A stretch of DNA of 60,897 nt, filler included, from Dehalococcoidia bacterium (GTDB lineage: Bacteria; Chloroflexota; Dehalococcoidia; DSTF01; RBG-16-68-14): assembly GCA_040882355.1 (NCBI GenBank). It is 4 parts of 4 records of this genome, joined end to end, with 100 filler letters (N's around TTAATTAATTAA, not from the genome) between each part and the next. Parts side by side here need not be neighbours in the genome. Positions count along the whole stretch, not along the records: positions 38,738 to 57,263 come from JBBEBM010000048.1; 3 more parts are not named here. One strand, written 5' to 3'. A model generated the notes under the pieces. The model was given only the letters and a program-made list of their open reading frames with translations, did no database searches and had not been told where the DNA came from. The position numbers were made by a program, and so were the translations under genes. This document shows, piece after piece, positions 52,995-53,822 of the stretch. Positions within the stretch are counted from its first letter, which is position 1. Every line of letters begins with the position of its first letter.

Positions 52995-53822
52995 TCACGG
53001 CCGCGCCGCGACGAAGAGCGACCGACGCTGCAGGCCTGCCTCGATGAAGCCGATGCGCGTGCGCCGGTTCTCCTGTCCCTCCGCGAAGGCCTGCGCTCCC
53101 TCAAGCTTGCGCAGCTCCGCCGCGTGACGCTCGCGCCCTTCGTAATAGCCGCGCGAGATTCGGAGGTACTCCTGAGTCTCGTCGGCCTCCTCGATCTTGA
53201 CGAAACCAGCGGAGCGCAGGAGATCACGCTCGGACGACGTTGAGGCGAGTTCGGGCGGGTCGCCCAGCGCGAGGATGCGCTTGCGATCAGCGTCCGAGAC
53301 GCCGGGCGGAATGAAGATCGTGTAGAAGGCCATCTTGCCGGCCGGCTTTAGCAGCCGCCTGCACGCTCTCAACACGGAGAACTTCGCGCGCACTCAGCAG
53401 AGGACGTCTGTGTGGACGGCGGCGTCGAACGCTTGGGCGCGGAAGGGCAGATGCGTACCACTGGCTGCGATGCAATCGACGCGCGAAAGCAGTTCCTGCT
53501 CGCGCGCTCGGGCAAGCGCCGTGCGCATGCCCGGCACCGGCACGTCGGTGGCGACGACCTCGCAGCCCGTCGTCCTGGCCAGGTAGAGGCCGGGCCACCC
53601 TTCTCCCGCGCCGACGTCGAGCAGACGCTTGCCGGGGCCCAGCCCGAGACGCTTGGCGAGGCCGTCGGCCTGGGCGATGGTCGTGTACCCGTTCACGCCG
53701 GTGTTGGCGCCGAACACCTCGCGCTGGATCGCGTCCCTCGGCGTGCCCACAGGCGCTCTGTAGCACCCTTCGAACTTGGCTCTGCTGTTATCCTGGCTCC
53801 TGCTCCGCTCAGCGTCGTTCAT
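52995..53822 (-). CDS. Class I SAM methyltransferase with in-frame TGA (53394-53396) after Cys; probable selenoprotein (275 aa)
   Basis: LDVGAGEG motif I upstream; LPF....FDA...TDVLC-TGA-VRAK..VLRAC.RLLKP.G continues in the same frame; SECIS-like hairpin follows. Confidence 0.78.
53360..53392 (-). promoter_or_regulatory. Candidate bacterial SECIS element
   Basis: UGCGC-gcgaa-GUUCUC-[CGUGUU]-GAGAGC-GUGCA; apical loop starts 17 nt after UGA with G at loop position 2. Confidence 0.6.

Follow-up and report, generated by a model that had tools for sequence, protein, structure and literature searches.

A 2026 review lists 119 prokaryotic selenoprotein families and subfamilies in its Table 1, and in the accessible part of that review the methyltransferase entries are ArsM (motif UxxG, where U is selenocysteine, Sec), methylated-DNA-protein-cysteine methyltransferase, MduS, methyltransferase/UXPK-star and two ArsM fusions (PMC13188914). 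Here we describe a gene from a 60,897-nucleotide (nt) stretch of DNA of a Dehalococcoidia bacterium (assembly GCA_040882355.1), hereafter the window, which adds a different type of protein to this comparison. Judging from its sequence, the region 52995-53822 is very probably one gene for a class I, S-adenosylmethionine (SAM)-dependent small-molecule methyltransferase in which a UGA at codon 143 is decoded as Sec, directly after a Cys codon.

Sec-type ArsM (UxxG) and the protein described here are both class I SAM methyltransferases in which Sec replaces a substrate-site Cys. They differ in the place of this residue, which directly follows strand beta-4 here and lies in a later W-x-G-U-x-x-G segment in ArsM, and the ArsM N-terminal signature is absent from the present family. 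MduS (CxxU) and methyltransferase/UXPK-star (UxxG), both tabulated from Haft and Tolstoy 2025, have in common with it that they are selenoproteins with a Methyltransf_25-type domain; compared by way of the review table and the NCBIfam models, they have other motifs and Sec positions, with two separated Sec residues and extra domains (PMC13188914). The adjacent Cys-Sec pair is shared with SaoL (a MerB-like lyase), HgcA, SaoC and MbdU, where it is thought to bind soft metals or metalloids, but according to the same part of the review these proteins have unrelated folds, none is a methyltransferase and none is tabulated with Sec-Cys (UC) or Sec-Sec (UU) variants (PMC13188914).

Among the 119 families, as far as the accessible part of the review covers them, there was no standalone class I methyltransferase with a CU, UC or UU pair after motif IV, and both Actinomycetota and Chloroflexota are unmentioned in its text (PMC13188914). 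The words methyltransferase, Actinobacteria and Chloroflexi are absent from the deep-Sep paper (PMC12013277), and the methyltransferase passages in the accessible part of a 2005 read-through paper deal with pyrrolysine, not Sec (PMC1242214). In NCBIfam release 20 no model was reached by this protein. The best match was the DVU_1556 family methyltransferase (NF045667; 51.8 bits, cut-off 155), and scores for the models of known selenoprotein methyltransferases were far below their cut-offs: ArsM NF008823 (27.5 vs 263 bits, with Sec after beta-4 and not in the W-x-G-[UC]-x-x-G segment), ArsM/DUF2284 NF041536 (33.8 vs 575), ArsM/AhpD NF041537 (41.6 vs 510), MduS NF045649 (25.6 vs 380) and methyltransferase/UXPK-star NF047649 (34.3 vs 460). 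The family is thus apparently uncatalogued; a literature search, with Haft and Tolstoy 2025 and current RefSeq records outside its scope, found no description of it.

A complete methyltransferase frame with an internal UGA

The gene and the elements discussed below are:

52995..53822, minus strand: predicted complete selenoprotein gene for a class I SAM-dependent methyltransferase with a C-terminal helical lid, ATG at 53822-53820 (from the single frame, Pfam, AlphaFold and the full-length orthologue alignment)
53394..53396, minus strand: in-frame UGA, codon 143, second position of the Cys/Sec pair (TGA or Cys in the same column in orthologues)
53397..53399, minus strand: TGC for Cys142, the first residue of the pair (all parsed loci have Cys or Sec in this column)
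53595..53624, minus strand: SAM-binding motif I, LDVGAGEGWP, residues 67-76 (within the Pfam match)
53365..53382, minus strand: conserved core of the putative selenocysteine insertion sequence (SECIS), stem GUUCUC/GAGAGC (6 bp, one U.G pair) with the 6-nt loop CGUGUU, starting 11 nt after the UGA
53360..53392, minus strand: extended hairpin of this sequence alone, with lower stem UGCGCGC/GCGUGCA, a 5-nt bulge and the upper stem-loop (minimum-free-energy fold)

Two minus-strand open reading frames (ORFs) cover the gene, one at 53394-53822 (142 amino acids, ending in ...HTDVLC before the TGA) and one at 52995-53393 (132 amino acids, with a GTG start right after the TGA). The sequence-only reading had joined them into one complete class I SAM methyltransferase, and this was borne out: read through, 52995-53822 is a single frame of 275 codons on the minus strand, in which codon 143 at 53394-53396 is the sole internal TGA, and the C-terminal half contains no more stops and no frameshifts. 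The terminal stop is likewise TGA (52995-52997). Read from the sequence, a GGAAGGA lies 9 nt upstream of the ATG at 53822, and we infer that it is the ribosome-binding site. The Pfam domain Methyltransf_11 (PF08241) covers residues 68-166 of the read-through protein and thereby crosses the TGA (E 1e-15, 58.6 bits, gathering cut-off 21.2); Methyltransf_25, _12, _31 and _23 also score above their cut-offs, and orthologues align over the full length. Among 50 homologues there is no variation at D69, G71, G73, G75, P77 and D93. With the domain score, a GxGxG motif I, an acidic residue after beta-2 (D93) and a Rossmann-like fold, the protein has the features of class I SAM methyltransferases. The pair is aligned right after motif IV and beta-4, in the segment to which the break had originally been assigned.

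The genome is metagenome-assembled, in 82 contigs (94% complete), and the TGA might for this reason be suspected to reflect variation between strains or a mistake in sequencing or assembly. We consider this extremely improbable, however, since the contigs of four sequencing runs, all from one sediment-metagenome study that may include the source sample, have no differing letters at 53394-53396, and since the same codon is found in independent genomes.

The genome also encodes the components on which Sec decoding, as proposed from the sequence, would depend. SelA (464 bits), SelB (322 bits, cut-off 242) and SelD (373 bits) were all above curated cut-offs, and a tRNA-Sec was found by Rfam (79.5 bits) and called by ARAGORN as tRNA-SeC with anticodon tca. 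A search of the genome for the formate dehydrogenase alpha subunit FdhA (TIGR01553) gave no match at E <= 1e-20, a result that does not show its absence because the genome is 94% complete. If the absence holds, methyltransferase selenoproteins may be among the reasons why the Sec trait is kept.

The Cys/Sec pair and its hairpin in related genomes

When 41 related genomes were searched in six frames with an orthologue threshold of E <= 1e-30, 10 of them had an orthologue (45-59% identity), nine with a TGA within the match and one without, which has Cys-Cys. In the aligned orthologues every TGA is confined to one two-residue position right after motif IV, in the variants CU, UC and UU, and the stop-free form is CC. 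Within a class-wide sample, 8 of 401 genomes had an orthologue, TGA-bearing in 7 of the 8. We further scanned 185,579 species-representative genomes, in which 385 relatives were confirmed; the best 80 were kept and gave 81 loci together with this genome. Of these, 78 could be parsed and three were missed by the search pattern. The pair was CU in 53, UU in 7, UC in 5 and CC in 13 of the parsed species-level loci, a split that is not a frequency estimate because the best 80 are the relatives nearest to a Sec-form query. TGA or Cys fills the codon-143 column in 78 of 78, with no varied sense codons, and the pair contains TGA in 65. The in-frame UGA is thus aligned with Cys in homologues, as expected of a selenoprotein gene.

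TGA-bearing loci span several phyla at 41-59% protein identity with both halves fully conserved. Carriers belong to the Dehalococcoidia and other Chloroflexota, to many Actinomycetota, to Dormiibacterota and Gemmatimonadota, and to an Eisenbacteria-type genome, and include the cultured Pseudonocardia adelaidensis (JCM 18302) and P. hispaniensis (CCM 8391), both with the CU form. The family is thus widespread among bacteria of soils and sediments. Tandem TGA-TGA (Sec-Sec) was seen in 7 of the 78 species-level loci, all from Chloroflexota and each with one shared hairpin only (L046-L048, L050, L052, L077, L081, others).

In public protein databases many members of the family appear as fragments. 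At E <= 1e-10 there were 642 short database relatives, and of the best 120 of these, 101 have the pair as their exact end and the other 19 start directly downstream of it, in agreement with the expectation that annotation pipelines would call two fragments. Where names were listed they were "hypothetical protein" or a generic methyltransferase. Among full-length database proteins (best 120 of 328), 117 have CC at the pair, one GC and one CW, and one is a C-terminal fragment; the Cys142 column is almost invariantly Cys among full-length database homologues.

These data bear on the possibility that the gene is a pseudogene, created by a nonsense mutation (e.g. TGC to TGA) in a Cys-Cys methyltransferase. 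TGA is one base from TGC and TGT, and it is an ordinary stop in this genome, used by 11 of 39 long ORFs with high GC content at third codon positions (GC3) in the window. Nevertheless, 65 of the 78 species-level loci, drawn from several phyla, have TGA at the same place with both halves conserved, the C-terminal half has acquired no further stops or frameshifts, and the nucleotide-frozen hairpin described below goes with TGA and not with Cys. We therefore regard a pseudogene as very improbable.

Equally, TGA might stand for another amino acid under a genetic code like 4 or 25, or the gene might be deliberately split into two subunits. One database homologue (P0023) does have Cys-Trp at the pair, and a GTG directly follows the TGA in this gene. 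P0023, however, is placed inside a clade of CU forms, so that its Trp is probably a TGA translated as Trp by the gene caller; homologues carry Cys at the site, not Trp or Gly; the genes for SelA, SelB and SelD have no internal stops; and TGA terminates this gene as well as the 11 long ORFs mentioned above. The codon after the pair is CTG, ATH, GTG or others in orthologues and is therefore not a conserved start. Both versions appear highly improbable to us. In the window, the 39 long high-GC3 ORFs end in TAG (22), TGA (11) and TAA (6), and the TAG share is high for a genome of 68% GC.

The UGA at codon 143 is almost certainly a Sec codon on the strength of these alignments and of the adjoining RNA element. 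The minimal bacterial SECIS of E. coli fdhF, a short stem-loop, follows the UGA at a distance of about 11 nt and has G and U in its apical loop. The element found here resembles it in these respects; it differs in sequence, with a 6-bp stem and a 6-nt loop, and in the UC and UU forms this hairpin would also have to serve for a UGA that lies 14 nt upstream. By analogy with standard bacterial Sec insertion, SelB carrying Sec-tRNA(Sec) would bind this mRNA hairpin 11 nt past the UGA. A scan of 53250-53480 against Rfam at E <= 10 gave three chance-level matches only and no SECIS family.

The pattern GCUCUC-CGUGYU-GAGRGC was present in 78 of 78 TGA-bearing loci, 11 nt past the second codon of the pair, with 6 of 6 base pairs in 75 loci and 5 of 6 in three. 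This tally counts some duplicate genomes and is a set distinct from the 78 parsed species-level loci. The element falls within the codons for K-L-S-V-L-R-A (K-F-S-V-L-R-A in this gene), and the sole deviation in this gene's hairpin is a C to U change which turns Leu into Phe and retains the pair as U.G. Synonymous sites within the hairpin are frozen: all 78 TGA forms use AGA/AGG for Arg, TCC for Ser and GTG for Val. The Ala codon that comes next, beyond the stem, is free at its third base (GCG 23, GCA 23, GCC 27, GCT 3). In contrast, the Arg codon is CGN in 12 of 12 Cys-Cys forms, and all six pairs are present in just one of the 13; two Cys-Cys forms with an identical KLSVLR peptide have just 4 and 2 pairs. 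RNAalifold predicted the stem from 62 distinct Sec-form sequences, with none of 310 pairs broken and 7 one-sided wobble changes, and predicted no such stem from the 13 Cys-Cys forms.

The sequence-only reading had described a two-stem hairpin whose lower stem starts 1 nt after the UGA and whose loop, CGUGUU, begins 17 nt after it with G in second position. The single-sequence fold has this geometry, and a hairpin with an apical-loop G directly downstream of the UGA is as expected for a selenoprotein gene. Conservation in orthologues is limited to the upper stem and loop; the lower stem is peculiar to this sequence and that part of the description did not hold.

Some of our results speak against Sec decoding directed by this element. 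At 68% GC the single-sequence fold is no better than chance (z = -0.79, 40 of 200 shuffles equally stable), so that the hairpin gains significance only from the comparison of orthologues. Compensatory double changes were found at 0 of 5 pairs in the 62 Sec-form sequences, and the case for the hairpin therefore rests on its conservation beyond coding need and on the contrast with the Cys forms. SelA was present in 9 of 10 Sec-form genomes tested as against 3 of 6 CC-form genomes (one of the six, G428, is unpublished), and the one Sec-form genome without a detected SelA is a metagenome-assembled genome of unknown completeness. Taken with the TGA/Cys column, the hairpin conserved in TGA forms, and SelA, SelB, SelD and tRNA-Sec in the genome, the original proposal of a methyltransferase with a Cys-Sec pair was upheld.

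The relation between Sec and Cys forms was further examined with FastTree, in a tree that joins 83 loci with 117 database proteins (200 rows) and for which the pair was masked. The two forms are intermixed on it, and at least 14 Sec/Cys changes are needed, at least 10 of which are forced by well-supported branches. A well-supported clade of 26 rows that holds this gene comprises all four forms (UU 8, UC 8, CU 7, CC 3). The direction of change was not inferred because the tree is unrooted and was made with a fast method.

Fold, gene neighbourhood and possible substrate

An AlphaFold model was built from 50 aligned sequences with Cys put at the TGA (mean predicted local distance difference test score, pLDDT, 90.2; predicted template modelling score, pTM, 0.88). 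It has a Rossmann-type core and a C-terminal helical lid, with residues 142-143 between beta-4 (132-137) and a helix (144-157). The closest solved structures were phosphoethanolamine N-methyltransferases, SpnF, AtmM/RebM, TleD and sarcosine/dimethylglycine methyltransferase, at template modelling (TM) scores of 0.70-0.75 and 14-24% identity. In a profile search against the Protein Data Bank (PDB), MitM (8.7e-26) and AtPMT2 (5wp5; 6.6e-25) came top and ArsM was distant (6.9e-7). The profile alignment sets "fdavvHtdVLCClrpK" opposite "FDVIYSRDTILHIQDK" of 5wp5 (AtPMT2), so that Sec143 aligns with the His of the RDxILH motif (RDTILH in AtPMT2) and D139 with its Asp; MitM also has His at this position.

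Compared with phosphoethanolamine N-methyltransferase, MitM, RebM and AtmM (PDB 5wp5, 3uj7, 8zc8, 3bus, 6uv6), the protein thus has a similar core and C-terminal helical lid and keeps the motif Asp as D139, but in the family Sec or Cys stands in place of their motif His, with Cys or Sec one residue earlier, at 14-26% identity. It does not qualify as a phosphoethanolamine N-methyltransferase, which would have His in RDxILH, since Cys or Sec stands on that His; the Asp is kept and the fold is similar (TM 0.70-0.74). Because Sec143 aligns with this His, the selenolate is probably at the methyl-transfer site, and we consider it likely that the Cys/Sec pair is catalytic or substrate-binding. In the mechanism which we envisage, the adjacent Cys142 and Sec143 would stand at the C-terminal end of beta-4, where related enzymes have His, with the selenolate probably close to both the methyl acceptor and the methyl group of SAM. 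The pair might hold a soft substrate for methylation, i.e. a metalloid or chalcogen such as As(III), Se or Te, or a persulfide or thiol; alternatively, it might act as a catalytic nucleophile or base.

Two genes lie upstream of the methyltransferase gene on the same strand:

53865..54437, minus strand: 190-amino-acid Methyltransf_11 protein, 42 nt from the start of the predicted selenoprotein gene (ORF, Pfam E 3.4e-19)
54434..55588, minus strand: 384-amino-acid DUF2652 protein (PF10851), overlapping the preceding gene by 4 nt (ORF, Pfam E 7.4e-23)

Judging from its spacing, the 190-amino-acid methyltransferase gene is probably in the same operon as the selenoprotein gene. Downstream and convergent (51724-52897, plus strand) are a PadR regulator and then a 283-amino-acid membrane protein with a weak HAAS match, and a 276-amino-acid ORF at 50737-51567 (plus strand) has a DUF3800 match (E 2.6e-7). 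The window contains 474 N in nine runs, as several contigs are joined in it; the methyltransferase gene is on contig G000:C48.

In other genomes an ArsM-like gene was found within 3 kb in 12 of the 81 loci, and 11 of these 12 genes are Sec forms with W-x-G-U. A looser cluster of ArsM-like neighbours in 30 loci was cut to these 12 by a strict ArsM N-terminal signature. Counted over 92 loci including duplicates, a metallo-beta-lactamase/rhodanese fusion was encoded within 3 kb in about 20, a major facilitator superfamily (MFS) transporter in 13, a luciferase-like monooxygenase in 10, a cupin in 8 and DsrE in 6. A seeming Glyoxalase_6 neighbour in 56 loci was dropped, as it consisted mostly of antisense shadow ORFs over the methyltransferase gene, with roughly 11 real upstream genes by reading of the gene maps.

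This genome itself encodes a second hidden selenoprotein methyltransferase on another contig (G000:C17:104708-105382; L127:1351-2235, minus strand). It is ArsM-like, with ...DIDLWSG-U-IAGA..., a Gly at the SN-x-VINL position and an 8-bp hairpin about 10 nt after the UGA, and by its sequence it would match the known UxxG type of Sec-containing ArsM. A close relative of this gene is present in 5 of 8 carrier genomes of the class sample, a co-occurrence that we give little weight because related genomes are not independent. In G032 (L011; G032:C25:12331-13131), the sole close relative with a CC form, the ArsM-like gene is also a Cys form. The Sec/Cys state of the two methyltransferase families may switch jointly within a genome.

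Among the chemistries suggested in the sequence-only reading (metalloid, thiol or corrinoid), metalloid or chalcogen chemistry fits the position of Sec and some of the neighbouring genes, which do not prove it, and nothing points to corrinoids. We regard a metalloid or chalcogen substrate as possible, with considerable reservation. Two points weigh against it. No arsenic, sulfur or selenium genes were found among the neighbours in the window (DUF2652, small methyltransferase, PadR and membrane protein), and an ArsM-like neighbour is found in 12 of the 81 loci only. The pair is probably near the SAM methyl group, a placement derived from the alignment and predicted secondary structure and not from coordinates. 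Mutants H132A and D128A of the Plasmodium phosphoethanolamine methyltransferase are named in PDB titles; its His132, the His of the RDxILH motif, we take to be the catalytic base.

With Sec decoded as proposed, the substrate might instead be an organic small molecule, the pair working in catalysis as a base or nucleophile, or else as a redox switch that gates activity through an S-Se bond. The nearest folds and sequences are those of phosphoethanolamine N-methyltransferases, MitM, RebM/AtmM, TleD and SpnF, with ArsM far weaker (E 6.9e-7), the many conserved Arg and Lys residues (K147, R152, R181, R253, R254, R266, R267) would suit an anionic organic substrate, and the window neighbours include no metalloid genes. 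On the other hand, Sec-type ArsM-like, rhodanese and DsrE genes recur beside the family in other genomes, and adjacent Cys/Sec pairs are, in the accessible part of the review, mainly those of metal- or organometal-handling selenoproteins (SaoL, HgcA, SaoC, MbdU; PMC13188914). An organic substrate is accordingly conceivable to us, though short of probable.

The widest interpretation, metalloid or chalcogen methylation by the whole family, is doubtful and offered only tentatively. Under it, these proteins might be an uncatalogued family of soil and sediment selenoenzymes (Actinomycetota, Chloroflexota and others) in which the pair, as CU, UC or a tandem UU read from UGA-UGA with a single SECIS, replaces the methyl-transfer His of an enzyme like phosphoethanolamine methyltransferase. 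The substrate held and methylated there would be a soft metalloid or chalcogen (As, Se or Te, and possibly Hg or persulfide), and the reaction a second Sec-dependent biomethylation route beside Sec-type ArsM.

Meaning for the family

For this family, hundreds of publicly deposited gene calls comprise just one half of the gene, and one Sec-expecting family model would correct them. Sec use would be extended in Actinomycetota and Chloroflexota. The two cultured Pseudonocardia carriers also have SelA, and the Sec prediction is therefore directly testable. The tandem UGA-UGA forms test the reach of a single bacterial SECIS, and in the series of CC, CU, UC and UU at one probably catalytic position nature has provided an experiment on the reasons for replacing Cys by Sec. 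Should the substrate prove to be a metalloid or chalcogen, the family would be relevant to the methylation of arsenic, selenium or tellurium in soils and sediments.

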